Source: an uncultured bacterium (lineage in GTDB: Bacteria > Acidobacteriota > Thermoanaerobaculia > Multivoradales > JAHZIX01). From it: a DNA stretch of 64,000 nt. Shown here piece by piece: positions 9,401-52,045 of the stretch. The position numbers were made by a program, and so were the translations under genes. Every line of letters starts with the position of its first letter. The stretch's first letter is position 1. Location: assembly GCA_965368975.1 (NCBI GenBank), contig CBDUPA010000007.1, forward strand, positions 64,001 to 128,000, in the 5' to 3' direction. The notes beneath the pieces were generated by a model. The model was not told the DNA's origin. It did not search any database and saw only the letters and a list, made by a program, of their open reading frames with translations.

Positions 9401-12400
9401 ATTCCGGGCGGCGCCTGTACCGCAGCGGCGACCTGGCGCGCACCTGCGTCGACGGTGACTTGGAGTACCTCGGTCGCATCGATCACCAGGTGAAGGTGCG
9501 TGGCTACCGCATCGAGTTGGGCGAGGTCGAGGCGGCGCTCGACGGACATCCGTCGGTGCGCCGTGCTGTGGCCGAGGTGCGCAAGGGCGCGGCCGGTGAC
9601 GGGGGCCGCTTGATCGCCTGGTTGCAGGTCGAGGGTGCTGGTGACGGCGCAGTCGACACCCCGAGCCTGGGCCAGCAGCTGGGGCAGTGGCTGGCCGAGC
9701 GCCTGCCCGAGCACCAGGTACCGTCCCTGCTGCTACCGGTCGACGAGCTCCCGCTCACCACCCACGGCAAAATCGACCGTCGTACCCTGGCGCGGCGTCC
9801 TTTGCCCGACGTCTCGACGGGCGCTGTCTACCGACCTCCGCTGACCGCGGTCGAGAGAACGCTGTGCGACATCTTCACCCAGGTTCTCGACGTACCGCGC
9901 GTCGGTCTGGACGATGGTTTCTTCGACCTCGGTGGCGACTCGCTGCTGAGCATTCGCGTCGTCGGCCTGGCGCGCGATGCCGGCGTGATGCTCGAACTCA
10001 CTGACTTACTGCGGCACCCGACCGTCGGCGCGCTGGCTAGTTTTCTCGCTGCACGTGAAGAGGGGCCGAGCGACGATGTGGAGCAGTACGCAGCGACGCA
10101 GCCCTTCGCCCTGGTTGATGCCGAAGACCGCGCCCGGCTGCCCGCGGACGTCGAAGACGCGTATCCGCTGGCCCGGTTGCAGGCTGGCATGCTTTTCCAC
10201 ATGGCGCTCACCGACGACGAGCCGCCCTACCACAACCTCGACAGCTACCGCCTGCGCGGCCCCTTCGATCCTGACGCTTTCCGCCGTGCCGTCCTCTGCG
10301 TCGTGGCTCAGCAGCCGGCGCTGCGTACCTCCTTCGATCTCGAGCACTACCGCCAGCCCTTGCAGCTGGTGCACGAGGAAGTGGACCCGGACCACGCCTA
10401 CCAGCTCATCGACCTGCGGCACCTGCCCGCAGCCGAGCGTGAGGCCACCGTCGACACTTTCCTGGAGCACCACCGCTCGCGTCCGCTGCCGCTCGACCAG
10501 CCACCGTTGGTGCGTTTCGTGGTGCACTGGTTGGAGCAGGAGGCGGACCGGAGTACTTTCGAGCTGAGCGTGATCGAAAATCACGCCATCTTCGACGGCT
10601 GGAGCCTGCACGTCACCCTGGACGATATCTTTGCCGAGGCGTTCACTTCGACGCCCACGGAGGCAGCCGCCAGTAAGCTATCGCCCGCGGAGCCATCGGC
10701 TGCGGCGGCCGTGACGTATCGAGATTTCGTCGTGCTCGAACGCGCGGCCGAGGCGTCCACGTCCAACCGCGCCTTCTGGCAGCGGATCGTCGAGGATGCA
10801 CCGTTCCTCGAAGTCCCGCGCTGGCCGCTCCCGCCGCGCGGCGAAGACCAGCTGCGCGTGCCCAACGTCACCGTGCCGCTGTCGCCGACCGCCGCCGAGG
10901 CCCAGCAGGCCGCGTCGAAGGTGCTCGGCGTACCAGTCAAGAGCGTCGCCCTGGCCGCCTATCTGGCGGCGCTGGCGCTGTGGACGGGCAGCGACGATAT
11001 CGTTACCAGCTTCACCGCCAACGGCCGCCCCGAGGTACCGGGTGGTGACCAGGTGCGCGGTCTCTTCCTCAACTCCTTGCCGCTGCGCCTGCACAAGCCA
11101 CGCGCCGGCAGCTGGGCCGACCTGATCCGGCGCGCTCGCGACGCCGAACTCGAACTACTGCCGCACCGCCGTTACCCGCTGGCCACCCTGCTGCGCGAGC
11201 TCAACACGGATCGTTCCTCGGGACGCGCGATCGGACGCTCCGCGGGCAGCGGCGCTCAGACCCAGCTGTTCGAGGTTGCCTTCAACTTCGTCCATTTCCA
11301 CGTCGTCGACGCCCTGCTCGACTCACGGCTGGAAGTGTTGGAGACCCGTATCCACGACGTCGACAGCACGACCCTCGTGTGCACGTCCGGCCGCCAGCCC
11401 GGCAGCGGCGAGCCCTACCTGCAGTTCGCTTGGGATGCCGACGAGGTCGGCCGCGCACAGGTGCGGCGTCTGGCCGAGTTGTTCGAGCGAGTCTATGAAG
11501 CGATGGCCGACCTGGAGCGGCCGGTGGCGTCGACGTCGGTGCTGAGCCGGGCGGAGCGGCACCAGATCGTGGTGGAGTGGAACGCGACCCCCGACCGTGA
11601 GCCATTCCTGGATCGGCACATGGACCTCCCCCTACCCAGATGGGAAAGCGACAGTCTGCACGCCCGCATCTTGCATTGGGTCCGGAACACCCCGGACGCC
11701 GTTGCCACGATCGAATCCACCGACGCGATCGACCAGGTGCTGACCTACGGTGAGTTGGGCCACCGCTCCGCCCGCCTGGCGTCGCACCTGCGCGCGCGCG
11801 GCCTGGCACCCGAGACCCGTGTCGGGATCTTCCTGGAGCGCAGCCTCGATGTTCCGGTCGCGCTGCTCGGTGTGCTGCGCGCAGGTGGGGCCTACCTGCC
11901 GCTCGATCCCACCTTTCCCGCCGAGCGTCTGGCCTGGCTGCTGGAAGACAGCGGCGCTCCGTTCGTGGTCACATCCGCCGAGCTTCGCTCGCGCTTGCCG
12001 CAAGCACCGGCGGAGGAGGCAGAGGTCGAGGTGGTCGTGCTGGACGAGGTCGAAGCCTTCGCGGATCCGGTCGCGGATCCCACGGCGGCGGCTCTCACAG
12101 TCGGCCTGAGCGATCCACGGCAACTGGTCTACGTCATCCACACCTCCGGCTCCACCGGCCGTCCCAAAGGTGTGTGCGCCCACCATGCCGGTGTGCTGGC
12201 GTTGCTCGATACCTACCGCACGCCGCTGATCGCTGCCGGAGCGCGTGCCAGTTGGTGGACGCGGCTAGTCTTCGACGTCTCCGTTTCCGAGATCTTTTTC
12301 CCCCTCACCAACGGCGTCGCGCTCGAGATTGCCCCGGAACGCCTGCGCGCTGACGCCTCCGGCTTCCTCGACTGGCAGGCCGAACGTCGGATCGATGGTG

Positions 12401-44957: not shown

Positions 44958-45193
44958 GGGATCTCCCGGGGGTGGGGGTGCGCGGTGGTTGTGTCAGGTG
45001 GATTGTATGACGAAGCGGGGTGTGCTGCGCCCGTAATCATTGGGTGGACTAGAATCATGTCTCTCACCCTGAGAATGATATCTATGAGGCAGCAATCGTG
45101 TTTCCTCGATGGCAACGGTCCGAATTATGACGTCATGGGATGTTTCGGACAGTGTTCTCAAGTTCCCTATGAAAATGGTGTCAGGAGGTTTAA

Positions 45194-46225
45194 GTGATGG
45201 AGCTGCAGATGGCGATTGAAAAATTCATGCATGGCTACTTTTCGACTTGCAGTAGGAGTGACAAGACAATTCGGGCCTATTCAGTCGATTTGCGACAGTT
45301 CATGGAGTTTCGTAATCCAACTACTGTACTGGAGGGTATTTGCTCTGGGGATCTAGAAGACTGGGCCTCCAGCCTGAAAGCAGAAGGATATTCTCCTGCA
45401 TCTATCCGGAGGAAGTTTGCTACGGTTAGGGTATTCTTCAGGTACTGGTTCCGAAAGAGGCAGCTCACAACCTCGCCATGTGTGGGCATTCGTTTAGATT
45501 TGGGGCGAAGAGTGAAGCTGCCGTCAGCTGTTTCCTATGAGTTTCTCTGCGATCTACTAGGCGTTGCCCGAGCTAGCGTCGTCGACACTGAGCTGGAGCA
45601 CCACTCTGGTAGGAGACTGTTCTTGGCAAAAAGAGATCTGTTGATAGTTGAGATTCTGGTAGCAACAGGTATTCGGATTGGTGAGTTAGCCAACATTTTG
45701 GTGGGGGATGTATCGACCCGAGACTTCTCTATAATTATCAATGGAAAAGGAGGACGGCAGCGAAAGGCGCTGTTGGTTAGAGCGCATTCCCGGGCGGCAT
45801 TGTTAGACTATTTGAGCTCAATAGATATGAACTCTGCAGGCCCGCTTTTCCTGAACCACCGAGGTGACGCACTTTCTTCTCAAGGAGCTGCTCAAGTTGT
45901 GACTCGCTTGTCCAGTCGATTGGGAGCAGGGAAGAGGATCACTCCTCATGTGATAAGGCACTCAATTGCGACGATTTTGCTGAGTCGGGGGGCGGATGTG
46001 CGAGTGATTCAGGTTTTTCTTGGGCACTCTTCAATTTTAACTACAGAAAAGTATCTGCATGTGAGTACAGGAGAGCTAGCCAAGCAGCTGGCGAAATATC
46101 AGCCAGAGTTTCCAGTGGATACGACACCGATAACTAGAAATTATCAACTCTGGAGTGTGTCGAGCCATGGATGTAGAGACAGAACTGGGACTGCAGCGAA
46201 TAGTGTTGATTGCCGACTGTGTTGA
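45194..46225 (+). CDS. Tyrosine recombinase/integrase (XerC/D-like)
   Basis: N-terminal SAM-like domain (SDKTIRAYSVDL); catalytic R (TGIRIGEL), K (GKGGRQR), HxxR (HVIRHS), H (LGHSS), Y (TEKY); AGGAGG RBS. Confidence 0.95.
   Translation: MMELQMAIEKFMHGYFSTCSRSDKTIRAYSVDLRQFMEFRNPTTVLEGICSGDLEDWASSLKAEGYSPASIRRKFATVRVFFRYWFRKRQLTTSPCVGIRLDLGRRVKLPSAVSYEFLCDLLGVARASVVDTELEHHSGRRLFLAKRDLLIVEILVATGIRIGELANILVGDVSTRDFSIIINGKGGRQRKALLVRAHSRAALLDYLSSIDMNSAGPLFLNHRGDALSSQGAAQVVTRLSSRLGAGKRITPHVIRHSIATILLSRGADVRVIQVFLGHSSILTTEKYLHVSTGELAKQLAKYQPEFPVDTTPITRNYQLWSVSSHGCRDRTGTAANSVDCRLC
46129..46145 (+). repeat. Left putative recombination site GATAA-CTAGAAA-TTATC, inside the 3' end of the recombinase gene
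   Basis: 5-bp inverted arms around an asymmetric 7-bp spacer; exact reverse complement of 51795-51811. Confidence 0.85.
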
Positions 46226-47177
46226 AGTTGAGCCTGACCAGACTTCAAGTTTCTCGTCAGCCCTAGATCAGACAAGGTTGAGCGAGAATCTTGAGCTAAA
46301 GGAGGGATTGGAGGAACTTGGCGCGGATGTCATCGTAATCGAGGACCCAGGAGATTTTGCGCTCGCGCTTGACCAGTTTTCTGACTGGCTAGTTTTCCCG
46401 AACTGGATGGGAGAGCGATCGAGAAGTCGTGCAGGTCTGATACCGGCTATCTGTGAGGCAACGGGTACAAGGTATGTGGGAGCTGACGCCTACACGAGGA
46501 TCGTTTGCGGGGACAAGGTGCTGTCTAGAGTTCTGGCGAAGCAAGCTGGCTTCACTCTCCCAAAGCACTGCGTCTGCGCCTTGGGTATGACGATTGGGCC
46601 TTTATTTGACATCGAGCCACCGTATGTAGTGAAACCTTCTAGGCAGAATAGCTCGATTGGCATATCCACGAGAAGTCTCTGCTCTTCGGAGGAGTCTTGC
46701 AGAGAAGTGGTCGCAACTCTTCAGGAAGAGTTTCAGGAGCCCATACTGGTTGAGAAGTTCATTCCAGGGAAGGAGGTCAGTATAAGCATGACTGGGAATC
46801 CTTCGGGCACCACTTCGCTCGCTGCTTGTGAGCGTTACGTCATCGATGATGAGTTGTACTTTGAGTCAGCTTTGTTCTCGCTTGAGCTGAAGAAGTATAA
46901 GATGTTGGAAACTAGACTTAAGCCCAGGCCAGATCTATTGACTCCAGACACTGTCGCAGCGTGTGAGCGACTATTCCGCCTTCTAGGGTGCCCATCAATT
47001 CTGAGAATTGATGGCAGAGCGCCAACCGCGGATCAGTTAACTTTAATCGAAATATCTCCCAATCCGCTCATGACCATGAGTTCTGAGTATCTCGGTGCCT
47101 TCCTTCTCGACGGGAGAGCTCGCATTGATATCCTGCACGAGATCCTCTCTAATTCTCTGACCCGGTGGAGGCGCTGA
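46167..47177 (+). CDS. D-Ala-D-Ala ligase-like ATP-grasp enzyme
   Basis: YVGAD...CGDK, PYVVKPSRQNSSIGI, ILVEKFIPGKEV, LRIDGR, LIEISPNP. Confidence 0.85.
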   Translation: MDVETELGLQRIVLIADCVEVEPDQTSSFSSALDQTRLSENLELKEGLEELGADVIVIEDPGDFALALDQFSDWLVFPNWMGERSRSRAGLIPAICEATGTRYVGADAYTRIVCGDKVLSRVLAKQAGFTLPKHCVCALGMTIGPLFDIEPPYVVKPSRQNSSIGISTRSLCSSEESCREVVATLQEEFQEPILVEKFIPGKEVSISMTGNPSGTTSLAACERYVIDDELYFESALFSLELKKYKMLETRLKPRPDLLTPDTVAACERLFRLLGCPSILRIDGRAPTADQLTLIEISPNPLMTMSSEYLGAFLLDGRARIDILHEILSNSLTRWRR

Positions 47178-48679
47178 TGTGCGGAATTGCGGCCGTTTAT
47201 CCATCATGCAGGGAACTGATAGATGAGGTGCTCCCGCGACTTCGGGAGCGTGGCCCTGATCAGGACGCTGTATCTGATACAACTTTGGCTTCTCTTGGAG
47301 CCTCACGGTTAAAAATTACGGATATGGAAAGGGGAGATCAACCACTAGTAACTAGCTCGGGTAGCACGGTTATTATCTTCAATGGTGCCATTTATAATGC
47401 TTTCTATTTGAGGGAGGCTTTTAATCTTCAGACCCTGACTCAAAATGACGCCGAGGTAGTCGCTTGCTTGTATGAGGTGCTCGGAGATGAAGTAGTGAAC
47501 TACTTGGATGGTATGTATGCATTTATCATAGCTGATCTCAGGAGACAGCGGCTTGTTGCTGCAAATGATTCTTTTGGTATTAAACCCTTGCATTGGGCCC
47601 GGGCGGAGGGGCATCTGCTGTTCTCAAGTACTGTTAGCTCGTTGCCAGTCAATTTTCAGAAGACTGTAAGGCGCTTCCCTTCTGGTGTGCTTTGGGCGTC
47701 AGATGGCACAGTACGCAAGGTGGTGCCGTACCATGGCCAGAGTTGTGGTGAGCTAGTCGAAGAACTGCGACGAGCAGTTCGGTCGCAAGTACCAGCGGAG
47801 GTACCTTGGGGTTGCATGTTGAGTGGCGGTGTCGATAGTGCTTTGGTGACAGCAATGTGCACAGAGTTGCGAGGCTCCTCTGTGATTGCGTATACCGCTG
47901 GGACGCTGAAGAGCGATGACTTCAACGTAGCACGCAGGTTTGCGAAGTTTGTTGACTTGGATCATCGCCCTATTGTGATTGATCGTATGATGGTTGAGCA
48001 GGCAGTGGTTCAAGTCATAGAGGCCACTGCCAACTACGATCCACTAACTGTAATGAGTGGAGTTGGTACCCTACTCGTAGCGGATCAAGCGCGGCGAGAT
48101 GGCGTTAAGGTTCTGCTCTCGGGAGAGGGTGCTGATGAACTCTTTGGTGGCTACGATGTATATCAGAAGATTCCTACTAGAGATCTGAATAGTACTCTCT
48201 TGAGAGATCAGAGCGAGTTGGGAGCTACGGAGTGTCTTAGACTTGATCGTTGCACCGGCGCGTGTGGCATTGAGGCTCGCGTTCCATTCCTTTCTGCCGG
48301 AGTTGTTCAACTGTCTCGATCAATTGGTCCCCTAGATAAGATCTTGCCTACTGCGGATCGGCGGACCTTCAACAAAATTGCTTTGCGACGAGCCGCAGAA
48401 CTGTGTCTGCCCAACTGGGTTGCACACAGAGAGAAGGTGCCGTTCTTCGAAGGAGCAGGTCTATCGGGAATGGTTGCCGAGGTTGCTGAAAGTTGGCTTG
48501 AAAGAAGCAGCATTTCTAGATCTCAGGATGAACTCCGATGCTTTGGAGTTCACTCAACTGTGGCGAGATATCTCTTTGAACTCTGGTTCGAGAGGTTCGG
48601 GGAGATCACGACGAGTTTCGAAGACTTATGTATCCGTGGTCTAACGAGGAGGAATTACTTTCGGCCGAATGGCTTATGA
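47177..48679 (+). CDS. Asparagine synthase (AsnB)-like Ntn glutamine amidotransferase
   Basis: N-terminal MCGI, RGPD, FNGAIYN, DSFGIKPL, LSGGVDS, LSGEGADELFGGY, EARVPFL; TGATG overlap with the ATP-grasp stop. Confidence 0.9.
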   Translation: MCGIAAVYPSCRELIDEVLPRLRERGPDQDAVSDTTLASLGASRLKITDMERGDQPLVTSSGSTVIIFNGAIYNAFYLREAFNLQTLTQNDAEVVACLYEVLGDEVVNYLDGMYAFIIADLRRQRLVAANDSFGIKPLHWARAEGHLLFSSTVSSLPVNFQKTVRRFPSGVLWASDGTVRKVVPYHGQSCGELVEELRRAVRSQVPAEVPWGCMLSGGVDSALVTAMCTELRGSSVIAYTAGTLKSDDFNVARRFAKFVDLDHRPIVIDRMMVEQAVVQVIEATANYDPLTVMSGVGTLLVADQARRDGVKVLLSGEGADELFGGYDVYQKIPTRDLNSTLLRDQSELGATECLRLDRCTGACGIEARVPFLSAGVVQLSRSIGPLDKILPTADRRTFNKIALRRAAELCLPNWVAHREKVPFFEGAGLSGMVAEVAESWLERSSISRSQDELRCFGVHSTVARYLFELWFERFGEITTSFEDLCIRGLTRRNYFRPNGL

Positions 48680-51600
48680 AGGCGGGGGCGTCAGGCCGAT
48701 TGTCCAATAGCAGAGAAATGTAGGCTCAAACTGCGCAGGTACTTCATGGTGATAGCTGCTGTTGACGAAGTTATCTGAGTACAAGCGGTCATTCCATTCT
48801 TGTGACCAGAAGTTGATATCGATCTGCTGAGCGGCTCGCAGATTCTTCGCGGCCACTGCCTTGCTGTTCCTGAGTGAATAATATAAATAAAGATTATAAT
48901 GAGCGATGCGTCGAATTTCGAGGTCTTGTGGGTCTCTATCTGCCAAGATTCGCTCGATTACTGCCACCATTTCAGTCGCAGCTCTGTATCTCTCGCTTAT
49001 AGTGAAGAGGATTAGAGAATTCATGCTGATAATCAGGCGTGAGAACATGTCGGTTGCCGTCCGTCGAGCAGAGCGAAGCAGCGCTATTGCAGACTCTGGC
49101 TCTGATCCCATGTAGATAGCAATGGCTGCACGATTATTAAGAATGCAGTGTTCTTCGGATGGCAGCTCTTTCATGAGTCGCTCTGCTGTGTCTAGCTCGG
49201 CAAGGGCTTCTTGATGTTTGCCCATCTTGGATAGCTGTAGTGTTATGGAGACTCGGGTTCTGGCTTCTTCAAGTTGATCGCCGAGCTCATGGAAGATTTG
49301 AATGCTCTGACGCATGCATTCCGTAATCTCAGCATTACACCTTGTTGTGAGCTGCGCATTGCGTAGAAGGTGGGCATAGCTCCTGCAGTGGTGTATTCGA
49401 GGGTCTTCTCTGAGTTCCTTGAACAGGTCATCACAGTCAGCGTGGCTGTTTGTGCAACGGTACGCTGACAGAACAACGAGTTTGAGCCGGAGGTATAACT
49501 CTGGATCGTCTTCGATCTTGGGGAGATAGAGATCACAGAACTCGATGGCTTCTTGATGCCTGTGATCCCATACCAACAGGGCTGCGCGGTATTCTAGATA
49601 CCAGGAGGCTCTCAATTTGTCGAGGTCTGTGGCTACTCGCAGAGCCTCTTGGTATTGTCCAGCCATGAAATAAAGATATATGCAGAGACGATCCAGAGTT
49701 GTTTTCTGGTTCTCGGTTGCGGTCTGATAGGCGGTGTTACGGATCTTCTCGAGGTAAGTACAAAGTTGCCGAATAGAACGGTTAGCTAGTGCAAGTCTTG
49801 TGAGTTCATTAAGCAGCGGCAGAGCACGATATTCCTGGCCTAGGTTCATCAAGCAGACTAGAAGCATGACGATCTTGTCGGCGCGAGTTTGAAAAGAGAA
49901 CCTCTCTTCTTGCAGTTCTTGTTCGTAGATCTTCTTCCAGTGATCAAATGCAATTATTAGGTGACGGGAGAAGTCGTCACTGTCACGAGCATGCTGTAAG
50001 AGTTGATCTTGTGCAATCGAAACCTCAGTTCCATCATCAGACACAAGCCTCCGCTTCTGAAGTGTCAGAATTGTATCTTCTACATCTAGAATCTCGACCG
50101 CAGTACCTTCTAGGTCTTCGTATAGGGTGTTTAGGTGAGACCAAGGTACGATGCCACCGTGTGAGACAATCAAGGCGAATAAGAACTTTTGCTGCTCTGA
50201 TAGCGTAGTGAGGTTATCAAGAGTGATTGCCTCGAAGGATTGTTCGGCAAGTCCACGGACGTAGTCTGTATCGGGCGCGCCTCGCAGCTCTAAGGCAACT
50301 TCGAGATCTATGAATGGCCTCAGGTTTCCCTCTGACTCCTGATAAGATCTTCGCACGAACAAGTCGATGGCACCTTCCCTCTTGCGGAGGATTTTCATCG
50401 CGTGATCCACCTGGAGCTTGCCGAGCTTGAGCGTTTGCACTATTACTGAGGCGACCGCGAAGGCTGATTCTAACTGTGTTAAATCCCAGCCATTCGGATC
50501 ATCTTCTGTCAGCTCTAATAGAAGATAGATTCCTCTAGGAGATTGGAGGAGCCGTGAAAAGAAATCAAGTGAGTAGTCATCTAGGTTCTGTGCGTTCTCC
50601 ACGCAGATGACCATCGGGAGTTTACCGGAGCAATGCAGAATGTAACTCTCAAGAAGGGGGAGATCACGTTCTCCAAGTCTGGCAAGTTCATGCCAGAAGG
50701 TGGAGGGCGTAAACTCTGCGGGCTGAGGGAAATCCTGTCGCTGCGAGAGTCTTCTACTTGCGATGTGTGACTGAAAGGAAGGAATCTGTCCAGGAAAAGT
50801 TGCGGCCGAGAGGTGAATTCGGTGTGCGAGAACACGCATGTAGAAAGATTCTTCCCGGTAGTCCCGGGCATGCTGCGGGATTGCCAATCGAACATAGAGT
50901 TGCTGAGGTGAATGTTGGCGATTCTTGAGTTCGCTAAAAACCCTCTCTGTTAGCGCACTCTTACCCACGCCGCTCGGAGCATGTAGAAGCAGAGCTTTGT
51001 TTTGGTATTCTGTAGCGAGTATATCTGTGCACAAGGCTGAGATCTCTGCTGACCGATTTACGAAGTGTGATGCTTTAACTGAAGCAGGCACCTGCCGTTG
51101 GTCGACATCTTTGGGTAAATACGTGAACTCGCGATATTCATCATGGTCCCGAGGGGCTTGATCCGACTTATCTAAGTCACTTGAAGCGAGAACTTCATCC
51201 GCATGAACCGGTCCGGTGTCGAATCGCCTCTGGAATAGAACTGGTGTATGTTGTGCCGGTGAGTGCTCCATATGCAGTGCATTACAGGCGATACTGTAAG
51301 AGTCTGGAATGCTCTCGCCTGCACCGACAGCATCATAGAATGCAACGGAGAAGGTTATTGCAGCAGAGTCCGGAATCTCTTTGCCCATTCCGATGACAAA
51401 ATCTACATGTTTCGCTAGATACTCTGCCTGAATGCGAGAGAAGCAAGCGTTGAGGAGAATGCACTGGATTGATTTAGAAGTGATTCTAAAAAAATGGCCT
51501 AGAGCGTGATTATCTACAGGACGAGAGTGCCCTTTACCGTCGAGAAGATGTAACCCTCCTTTGCCAGAACCGTGGCCAGAGAAATGGATGAAATGAGGAC

Positions 51601-51790
51601 GGAACCTCAGGACTAGCCGCCGAAGGTCCCTTATTTGTGTGGCTGGGTGATGCTCGATAATAAACGAGTGCTGACTAGCGGAAAGGCCGGTTCGGATCTC
51701 TTCAGCTTCCTGAGCAAGTTGAAGACTCGCAGAATCTATTGCATTTGCTGCGAGGATTAGGAGGCGCCGAGATTCTGCGGGCCCGTTCAC
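48674..51790 (-). CDS. CHAT (caspase-like) protease - STAND/AAA NTPase - helical/TPR-like repeat protein
   Basis: CHAT dyad HFSGHG and LLNACFS; Walker A HAPSGVGKS; Walker B-like ICVENAQ; long helical C-terminus. Confidence 0.85.
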   Translation of the reverse strand: MNGPAESRRLLILAANAIDSASLQLAQEAEEIRTGLSASQHSFIIEHHPATQIRDLRRLVLRFRPHFIHFSGHGSGKGGLHLLDGKGHSRPVDNHALGHFFRITSKSIQCILLNACFSRIQAEYLAKHVDFVIGMGKEIPDSAAITFSVAFYDAVGAGESIPDSYSIACNALHMEHSPAQHTPVLFQRRFDTGPVHADEVLASSDLDKSDQAPRDHDEYREFTYLPKDVDQRQVPASVKASHFVNRSAEISALCTDILATEYQNKALLLHAPSGVGKSALTERVFSELKNRQHSPQQLYVRLAIPQHARDYREESFYMRVLAHRIHLSAATFPGQIPSFQSHIASRRLSQRQDFPQPAEFTPSTFWHELARLGERDLPLLESYILHCSGKLPMVICVENAQNLDDYSLDFFSRLLQSPRGIYLLLELTEDDPNGWDLTQLESAFAVASVIVQTLKLGKLQVDHAMKILRKREGAIDLFVRRSYQESEGNLRPFIDLEVALELRGAPDTDYVRGLAEQSFEAITLDNLTTLSEQQKFLFALIVSHGGIVPWSHLNTLYEDLEGTAVEILDVEDTILTLQKRRLVSDDGTEVSIAQDQLLQHARDSDDFSRHLIIAFDHWKKIYEQELQEERFSFQTRADKIVMLLVCLMNLGQEYRALPLLNELTRLALANRSIRQLCTYLEKIRNTAYQTATENQKTTLDRLCIYLYFMAGQYQEALRVATDLDKLRASWYLEYRAALLVWDHRHQEAIEFCDLYLPKIEDDPELYLRLKLVVLSAYRCTNSHADCDDLFKELREDPRIHHCRSYAHLLRNAQLTTRCNAEITECMRQSIQIFHELGDQLEEARTRVSITLQLSKMGKHQEALAELDTAERLMKELPSEEHCILNNRAAIAIYMGSEPESAIALLRSARRTATDMFSRLIISMNSLILFTISERYRAATEMVAVIERILADRDPQDLEIRRIAHYNLYLYYSLRNSKAVAAKNLRAAQQIDINFWSQEWNDRLYSDNFVNSSYHHEVPAQFEPTFLCYWTIGLTPPPS

Positions 51791-51794
51791 TATC

Positions 51795-51811
51795 GATAAT
51801 TTCTAGTTATC
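51795..51811 (-). repeat. Right putative recombination site (GATAACTAGAAATTATC on minus strand), 4 bp upstream of the CHAT-STAND start
   Basis: 17/17 identity with 46129-46145 in inverted orientation. Confidence 0.85.
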
Positions 51812-51824
51812 ATTGCTGCCTGGT

Positions 51825-51854
51825 AGGCTAGCATGGTGGTAATGGGTAGTGCAA
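51825..51854 (-). promoter_or_regulatory. Candidate sigma-70 promoter outside the right site, pointing into the cassette
   Basis: Minus strand TTGCAC-N18-TAGCCT with extended -10 TG. Confidence 0.4.
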
Positions 51855-52045
51855 CTGCGGATTTGCCACAGGTTCTTTACTTCCTTTTCCTGCAGAGAAA
51901 TTTTGTCCCAGGCGGTTCAAGATTCCCAGCCACCAGGCATCCTTTGAGTTGCCGCTAACGTATCCTAAATTCGACCCCTGTCGCGACGCCCACCCGCGTC
52001 GCGACACCAACCAAGGCTGGCCACCACCGTCTAGGAGCCGACCCG

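Follow-up and report, generated by a model that had tools for sequence, protein, structure and literature searches.

A putative recombinase-controlled inversion switch with two facing gene units in an uncultured acidobacterium, and its relatives among soil Acidobacteriota

What does a tyrosine recombinase gene do beside one of two identical, inversely oriented short sites, when these sites enclose two gene units that read towards each other? The question is raised by an element in a 64,000-nucleotide (nt) stretch of DNA from an uncultured bacterium of the phylum Acidobacteriota; this whole stretch is referred to below as the window, and the 7.1-Mb genome to which it belongs as G000. We consider it probable, at roughly 70%, that the element is a self-contained site-specific inversion switch, derived from horizontal transfer, which chooses between the two units. 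A first-pass annotation of the window had read the locus as a tyrosine recombinase adjacent to inverted crossover sites, with an invertible segment and two inward-reading units between them, and this core reading is now supported by the layout of a family of related loci, by inversions between genomes at the sites and, in the larger subfamily, by a promoter predicted on one side only. The coordinates of the features of the element are listed in Table 1.

The 17-mer GATAACTAGAAATTATC was found at both sites of the element with 0 mismatches and in inverted orientation. The identical, twice occurring site of the first-pass annotation was thus recovered, and it is exclusive to this element: the window contains no further match at up to 2 mismatches (100 dinucleotide shuffles expect none), and the genome G000 contains exactly 2 copies, both of which are located here. 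The copies are separated by 5,649 nt, and sequence identity between them is confined to the 17 nt. The two convergent units previously placed in the enclosed segment, each starting just inside a site, were also found there, with their starts 21 and 4 nt inside the left and the right site, respectively.

The gene abutting the left site was analyzed with Pfam and NCBIfam models, and the earlier description of its product as a tyrosine recombinase with intact catalytic motifs proved correct. A match to Phage_integrase (PF00589, E 9e-31) is accompanied by the N-terminal SAM-like domain Phage_int_SAM_1, and the six catalytic residues R161, K185, H252, R255, H278 and Y287 (R-K-H-R-H-Y) are invariant in all seven aligned sequences, namely the window recombinase and six relatives. 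The protein scored below the cut-offs of the XerC (TIGR02224, 191.1 bits against 335.15) and XerD (TIGR02225, 190.7 against 329.6) models as well as those of the XerA and XerS families, and the integron-integrase model TIGR02249 gave 74.9 bits against a cut-off of 265, matching residues 234-292 only. Its nearest solved structure is XerD (1a0p, E 2.6e-25). Only tyrosine-recombinase domains were found in it, which places it apart from the serine invertases Gin, Hin and Cin. The recombinase therefore belongs to the tyrosine (lambda-integrase/Xer-type) recombinases, outside the XerC/XerD equivalogs and the integron integrases. Its open reading frame (ORF) runs through the left site (46129-46225), with the last 27 codons inside the invertible segment; this tail is not conserved, and in the alignment the relatives terminate about 30 residues sooner. 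In the window, inversion would exchange these last 27 codons for one codon plus a stop.

The segment between the sites carries two genes on the left (unit A) and one on the right (unit B). The assignment of unit A to an ATP-grasp enzyme and an AsnB-type protein, made at first pass, is borne out by Pfam and NCBIfam matches. The ATP-grasp gene has a possible start at ATG 46167, with GGAG 11 nt ahead of it; the protein scored under the cut-offs of the NCBIfam Ddl models and shares 31% and 29% identity with the ATP-grasp proteins encoded in two related loci described below, L093 and L040, respectively. The amidotransferase reached 285 bits with TIGR01536, over the cut-off of 267, and its N-terminus (MCGI) keeps the N-terminal Cys that is expected in an active glutaminase domain. 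The ATP-grasp stop overlaps the amidotransferase start in TGATG at 47175-47179, which suggests translational coupling of the two genes. Unit B, whose 3' end overlaps that of the AsnB gene by 6 nt, matched AAA_16 (E 3.4e-9) and, below the cut-off of 24 bits, CHAT (E 6.9e-5, 22.9 bits), and the STAND/NLR-like label is given to it because of these AAA_16 and CHAT-like domains alone. Of the label CHAT-STAND-TPR used in the first-pass annotation, the first two parts stand in this form, while for the third the Pfam scan gave no repeat-family match, TPR included, in the C-terminal region. The N-terminal domain of unit B is 42-46% identical to those of the cargo of loci L064 and L034, and its NTPase part aligns over the full length with the STAND cargo of L040. 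With the PADLOC models, the four window proteins matched 0 families at E 0.01 or better, i.e. no known anti-phage defence match was obtained.

Table 1. Positions, strands and main characters of the island, the putative crossover sites and the genes of the element, numbered along the window.
Feature	Position	Strand	Description
Low-GC island with the whole element	~45030..51970		47-52% GC vs 61-69% GC in the flanks; ends approximate
Xer-like tyrosine recombinase	45194..46225	+	343 amino acids (aa) from GTG 45194 (ATG at 45197); Pfam Phage_integrase, Phage_int_SAM_1
Left (recombinase-proximal) site	46129..46145	+	GATAA arm, 7-nt spacer CTAGAAA, TTATC arm; fits family consensus (G)ATAA-N7-TTAT(C)
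Unit A gene 1, D-Ala-D-Ala-ligase-like ATP-grasp enzyme	46167..47177	+	336 aa; Pfam Dala_Dala_lig_C, E 3.8e-15
Unit A gene 2, glutamine-hydrolysing asparagine-synthase-family (AsnB-type) amidotransferase	47177..48679	+	Pfam Asn_synthase, GATase_7
Unit B, CHAT-STAND protein	48674..51790	-	1038 aa; CHAT-like protease domain and STAND-type AAA_16 NTPase; start GTG 51790
Right (far) site	51795..51811	-	Exact inverted copy of the left site
Outer flank past the far site	51812..51970		~160 nt, low-GC, part of the island; promoter or insulator possible

Whether the paired sites belong to the recombinase can be judged from its relatives, one of the checks that the first-pass annotation had suggested. 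Among 60 related genomes, five of the seven closest homologues (36-46% identity) were found to have an inverted pair of the same site type, with one site just past the recombinase gene and the second 2.7-5.8 kb downstream, again in low-GC DNA. A search with the recombinase alignment against one genome per species then gave 540 encoding stretches, the best 80 loci of which were analyzed. Most of them (72 of 80) are from Acidobacteriota, mainly Pyrinomonadaceae or Blastocatellia, and the others include Planctomycetota (2 loci), Eiseniibacteriota, Dormiibacterota and Saccharimonadales (1 each). An inverted TAA-N7-TTA pair with identical 7-nt spacers was present in 63 of the 80 loci and in 0 of 80 shuffled loci. 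The pair is missing from 17 loci; in 12 of them a contig end truncates the relevant side, and 9 of these 12 retain one site by the recombinase gene. Scanning of metagenome contigs with the recombinase yielded a single distant match (29% identity) and no close relative.

The sites themselves are composed as expected of a crossover core. Constant arms, (G)ATAA and TTAT(C), enclose spacers of which 26 different ones occur in the 64 segments longer than 600 nt; the two spacers of a pair match without exception. Strand exchange by tyrosine recombinases requires identical crossover regions, and constant arms around a free but pair-matched centre are what would be expected of a tyrosine-recombinase core site. 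A 16-nt core is common to the window, L017 and L019, although their recombinases are only 41-43% identical. When a degenerate site pattern was run over five complete relatives, only the already known pairs stood out, since a reversed-pattern control yielded similar counts in the AT-rich genomes. In L026, at the place of L016, a single site (11033-11047) lies about 110 nt past the gene of a homologue that is 45% identical and has the same order as the window genome; no partner was found within 10 kb at up to 3 mismatches, and the locus may represent either an element in decay or a platform left empty.

The layout of the segments is highly uniform. In 63 of the 64, a forward block is followed by a reverse block; the gap between the blocks has a median of 0 nt and is at most 30 nt in 53 of the 63, and the first possible start codon follows the 13-nt core after a median of 4 nt on the left and 10 nt on the right. 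Since the starts abut the sites and the blocks stand tail to tail, the segments have no room for promoters of their own, and the units would have to be transcribed from outside. Two arrangements were distinguished. The recombinase gene is upstream and reads into the segment in 9 loci, the window among them; in 48 loci the order is reversed, with the segment upstream and the recombinase gene directed away from it. For the latter, a strict sigma-70-type motif (TTGnnn-N16-18-nATAAT) was searched within 150 nt outside each site. Reading inward, it was detected at the recombinase-proximal site in 24 of 48 loci and at the far site in 1 of 48; reading outward, as a control, it was detected in 0 of 48 proximal flanks and 1 of 48 far flanks. 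Cassettes located further from the recombinase gene bear the same promoter-carrying flank on one side. The motif counts thus show, for the larger subfamily, a predicted promoter that is fixed, external and outside one site only. In 31 of the 64 spacers, a GG set in an AGGA/GGAG-like context closely precedes the start codon, and the site may double as a ribosome-binding region. Terminator-like sites in the window (6 against 6.2 expected) were uninformative.

Inversion was observed by comparison between genomes. Clustering of the cargo revealed the conserved pairs C0/C1 (10 loci), C2/C3 (8 loci) and C10/C11 (4 loci), and seven cassette types were found in both orientations relative to the recombinase gene, C0/C1 in 5 versus 4 loci and C10/C11 in 2 versus 2. 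Between L047 and L065, 1543 of 1550 nt align on the opposite strand at 75.5%, with the recombinase genes on the same strand, and the same holds for L074 and L077 with 1538 of 1547 nt. The cleanest case is L083 against L090: the flanks align on the same strand with 89% and 92% identity, and the 272 nt from site to site, both sites included, align on the opposite strand with 82% identity. A cassette type related to the window cargo, in which ATP-grasp and STAND units face each other, is present in L040 and, flipped, in L093. At the level of alignment, these comparisons show homologous segments inverted between genomes, with breakpoints at the sites. The segment of L083 (9512-9776) and L090 (9511-9774) is an ORF-less invertible stretch that measures about 250 bp and lies upstream of the recombinase gene at a distance of 224-226 bp; it looks like a classical small inverton that would be served by the same recombinase family.

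Traces of both orientations were also found in the assemblies. Of 46 contig ends inside the fetched loci, five lie exactly at a site (contig starts of L060, L069, L078, L082 and L098), and all five contigs run from the promoter-side site to the recombinase gene. Two further contigs start with an exact inverted copy of the flank that bears the promoter, over 93 of 93 nt in L054 (1-93) and over 36 of 36 nt in L049 (1-36), which is the alternative junction. Contig breaks at the sites together with inverted flank starts form the pattern that would be expected of populations of mixed orientation.

According to the mechanism that we propose, the Xer-like recombinase would bind the two inverted 17-bp dif-like sites, each composed of 5-bp arms and the asymmetric 7-nt spacer CTAGAAA, and strand exchange within the spacer would flip the 5.6-kb segment. 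The two facing units would be promoterless, and transcription would enter from outside: whichever unit adjoins the promoter-bearing flank would be transcribed, and the other would be silent and, because the units abut without a terminator, crossed by antisense transcription. In the assembled orientation of the window, unit A would lie behind the recombinase gene and unit B would be read only in antisense or from the far flank, and after inversion unit B would occupy the place behind the recombinase gene; in the subfamily of the window, the promoter-bearing flank would be the recombinase gene itself. The outcome would be an either/or, or a re-weighted, choice of unit within a clonal population. 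For this copy, it is the flipping, the promoter positions, the switching rate and the purpose that we infer, and we likewise infer at most that the recombinase transcript and a right-flank promoter could act as alternative drivers in the window, as the first-pass annotation had proposed.

Several observations weigh against a switch of this kind, or against its operation in the window. In the 9-locus subfamily of the window, the strict promoter motif was found in 0 of 9 loci on either flank and a looser motif gave only scattered matches, and a generic promoter scan of the window was at chance (4 found, 5.7 expected). The G000 contig is unbroken through both sites, and the window is assembled in one orientation. 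The loci found in opposite orientation are species-level relatives with 65-92% DNA identity and document inversion over evolutionary time, not a rate. The contig breaks at sites could partly reflect the handling of inverted repeats by assemblers; the repeats concerned are 15-28 nt long, and the final k-mers usual in assemblers are longer. Five of the 80 loci have full flanks and no site pair, and none of these five gained a partner site when they were searched again with mismatches allowed. Finally, the units are conserved as pairs, which is unexpected if they are never expressed together.

The alternative that fares best, though we regard it as unlikely, is that the element is a module for cassette exchange or mobilisation, in which the inverted sites mainly mark the ends of an exchangeable module, a double crossover with a donor that carries the same sites swaps the cargo, and inversion is a by-product; recombinase-mediated cassette exchange with inverted sites and the pdif modules of Acinetobacter plasmids provide the model. 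The cargo is indeed very diverse beside related recombinases, and recombinase genes that are 89% identical (L071 and L075) are accompanied by different cassette sets. Some cassette types are common to both subfamilies (C0/C1 in L025 and nine upstream-type loci, C2/C3 in L024 and six), the cassettes of the window's subfamily have a guanine-plus-cytosine (GC) fraction of 0.46-0.59 against 0.57-0.69 in their hosts, and the 16-nt core shared by the window, L017 and L019 in spite of divergent recombinases points in the same direction. However, the same cassette type occurs with many different spacers, which would block swaps between platforms, and exchange leaves unexplained why the starts abut the sites, why the units lack space for a promoter of their own and why a single flank bears the promoter. 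The recombinase gene of the window is itself low in GC, so the whole element moved and not the cassette alone. Cassette exchange is compatible with the inversion switch and may hold in addition to it.

Somewhat less likely still is a locked relic, that is, a family that is active but of which this acquired copy no longer flips and expresses whichever unit lies beside a working promoter. The assembly unbroken through both sites would agree with this, as would the solitary position of the element in a foreign host of much higher GC and the drift of the recombinase ORF through the site with its non-conserved 27-aa tail; the two 17-bp sites, which are still identical, the preservation of all six catalytic residues and the cargo ORFs, all of them intact, speak against decay. 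That the 17-mer is no recombination site at all but a regulatory or translation-initiation element shared by both units (an operator or a 5' untranslated box) is very improbable, because, although both copies read the same way towards a gene start 4-21 nt off and the AGGA/GGAG-like contexts noted above precede start codons, an operator would not need a 7-nt centre that matches within each locus and varies freely among loci, nor would it accompany the gene of a tyrosine recombinase in 63 of 80 loci or coincide exactly with inversion breakpoints.

If the inversion switch is the correct reading, the family would alternate between units of rather different character. One unit is nearly always composed of 1-3 enzymes, including ATP-grasp with or without AsnB (window, L040), an aminotransferase (L015), a PhyH dioxygenase plus aminotransferase (L019), SHMT (L017), a methyltransferase plus TauD (L018), a carbamoyltransferase (L037), GT2 plus DegT (L031), a CDP-alcohol phosphatidyltransferase (L074), a UbiA prenyltransferase (L039), lycopene-cyclase-like proteins (L028 and L020) and a 2OG oxygenase, which is faced by a unit of an unknown protein plus GNAT (L052). 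Opposite the enzymes, three kinds of unit are found: STAND NTPases with a repeat region and, in some cases, a CHAT domain; pentapeptide or CHAT proteins; and multi-pass membrane proteins of 315-385 aa without Pfam family. The partners of membrane enzymes (L039:8848-9792, L074:8683-9702, L028:4610-5602, L055:8554-9582 and L038:7681-8649) are 314-342 aa long with 3-7 predicted helices, and the three that were scanned (L039, L074 and L028) matched no Pfam family. On inspection, several membrane partners were seen to have a YP(R/H)xV..K-like motif after the helices. In the Protein Atlas they match only unnamed clusters, two of them the same cluster of 279 members, and the only named lead is RcgA, carried by 20% of one cluster and described as a rhizobial plasmid-transfer modulator. 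In L071 (5722-9743) and L075 (4823-9503), two tandem cassettes are present, each with its own spacer, about 130-170 nt apart, and one cassette shared by the two loci is flipped; this integron-like array suggests gain, loss or exchange of cassettes.

The composition profile of the window places the element in an island of about 7 kb with ~49% GC on average, in a genome of ~65% GC, and from this contrast over ~45030-51970 the island is therefore taken to be horizontally acquired. Judged by base composition, the recombinase, both sites, the cargo and the ~160 nt past the far site arrived together as foreign DNA. In the outer flank (51812-51970) no strict promoter match was found, and its fold was not better than that of shuffles (z -0.5 and -1.2). 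The element is the sole one in G000, and no tRNA gene is present near the island. The left neighbour is a GT4 glycosyltransferase gene, and the left flank is conserved up to ~44960 in 5 of 5 genomes of the same family; the right flank is conserved in 0 of 5, and no empty site was found among them. One relative of the same family, G002, carries a related element at another chromosomal location, with other cargo and the same 16-nt site core. A 15-nt inverted match between 45082-45096 and 51812-51826, the latter beside the far site, was considered as a decayed copy of the far junction and rejected as chance, its local alignment score of 20 being equalled by 63 of 500 shuffles; global alignment of the island ends found nothing. 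At the right end of the island, in host-type DNA, a GC-rich perfect hairpin with an 11-bp stem is located at 51979-52005. The surrounding 91 nt fold with a z of -3.7, matched by 0 of 200 shuffles, and no T-run follows; the hairpin could be a host repeat, a terminator remnant or an insertion target.

How far the proposed switch differs from known systems was examined by comparing its parts. In the G segment of phage Mu with its recombinase Gin, as in the C segment of P1 (Cin) and the P segment of e14 (Pin), an invertible segment of a few kb holds convergent alternative gene sets served by a fixed outside promoter, with the recombinase gene adjacent. The likeness lies in two convergent alternative sets within an invertible segment beside the recombinase gene; however, Gin, which depends on an enhancer and on Fis, belongs to the serine invertases, whereas a tyrosine recombinase is found here, and the Mu sets are paralogous tail-fibre genes with a constant 5' part, whereas here whole genes have their own start codons. 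Sites of the dif type have ATAA ... TTAT inner arms around a short central region, and the family resembles XerC/XerD-dif, XerH/difH, XerS/difSL and XerA in recombinase fold, SAM-like N-terminal domain and site anatomy. It differs from them in the 7-nt centre, in having inverted pairs around cargo in a foreign island instead of one site close to the terminus that is used at cell division, and in a proposed outcome of inversion, not dimer resolution.

With integrons the family shares an Xer-related recombinase beside cargo that would be promoterless and expressed from a platform promoter and, in some loci, two tandem cassettes; in the larger subfamily, the predicted promoter and the recombinase gene are also divergent. 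Unlike integrons, whose cassettes each end in attC and mostly point the same way, it has, judged by its cores of 15-17 bp, simple inverted site pairs rather than folded sites of the attC type, and two convergent units per cassette. The pdif modules of Acinetobacter consist of cargo bounded by inverse Xer-type sites on plasmids and rely on the host XerC/XerD. Discrete modules between inverse sites, with cargo varying between related contexts, are common to both, but here a dedicated recombinase lies within a chromosomal element, and a search of 72,556 plasmid records gave 14 matches, all of generic recombinases and none above 33% identity.

The closest working analogue is the vpma locus of Mycoplasma agalactiae with its recombinase Xer1, to which vsp/Mbr of M. 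bovis and vsa/HvsR of M. pulmonis are similar. As reported for vpma (PMC2268961), xer1 is adjacent to the locus, recombination takes place at sites in the 5' untranslated region immediately ahead of the start codons, a silent gene comes under a unique promoter by inversion, and loss of xer1 locks the phase. On this account, the family is alike in the Xer-like recombinase gene beside the locus, in sites ahead of start codons and, in its larger subfamily, in the predicted external promoter. It differs in that vpma comprises several paralogous surface-lipoprotein genes, whereas exactly two non-homologous units stand tail to tail here, with dif-like cores of 15-17 bp, a mobile island, soil Acidobacteriota as hosts, and metabolic enzymes paired with STAND/CHAT or multi-pass membrane proteins.

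Full-text literature searches found no description of this family. The main text of a survey of gene-altering inversions (PMC9881135) contains neither 'Acidobacteri' nor 'tyrosine recombinase', and its supplements list predicted inversions and may hold related loci; the accessible portions of the Lipocone paper (PMC12419801) contain nothing on inversion or Acidobacteria. The first-pass remark that no described system with this cargo layout was known therefore stands for the family, but not for the underlying principle, as inversion with an external promoter is known from vpma/Xer1 and Mu G. The family and its spread through soil Acidobacteriota, together with the cargo logic and the private spacers, appear to be undescribed.

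To our knowledge, work on programmed inversion has been confined almost entirely to host-associated bacteria and mostly concerns promoter flips or the swapping of parts of paralogous genes. The present design is compact and was found in at least 63 loci, spread through soil Acidobacteriota with a few copies in Planctomycetota and other phyla, and the switching of whole unrelated gene units would extend phase variation to a major and poorly cultured soil phylum. A small recombinase and 15-17-bp sites with many natural spacers could also serve as orthogonal inversion tools. A broader and clearly more tentative idea, which we find possible but rather doubtful, is a phylum-wide class of flip cassettes in which a dedicated recombinase with a private spacer would toggle one promoter between functionally linked, non-homologous units, typically envelope- or metabolite-modifying enzymes (ATP-grasp/AsnB or glycosyl-, carbamoyl-, prenyl- or phosphatidyl-transferases) on one side and an intracellular NLR-like STAND/CHAT sensor or an uncharacterised multi-pass membrane protein on the other. 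Such cassettes would provide clonal hedging, for example between surface alteration and abortive-infection-type immunity, and would be spread and exchanged between lineages; if this were true, the at least 26 natural spacers would be mutually orthogonal and would constitute a ready-made site set. The family raises the question of why enzyme sets stay paired with sensors or membrane proteins in an arrangement that lets a single promoter face just one member of the pair, and it would link STAND/CHAT NLR-like proteins to programmed on/off control.

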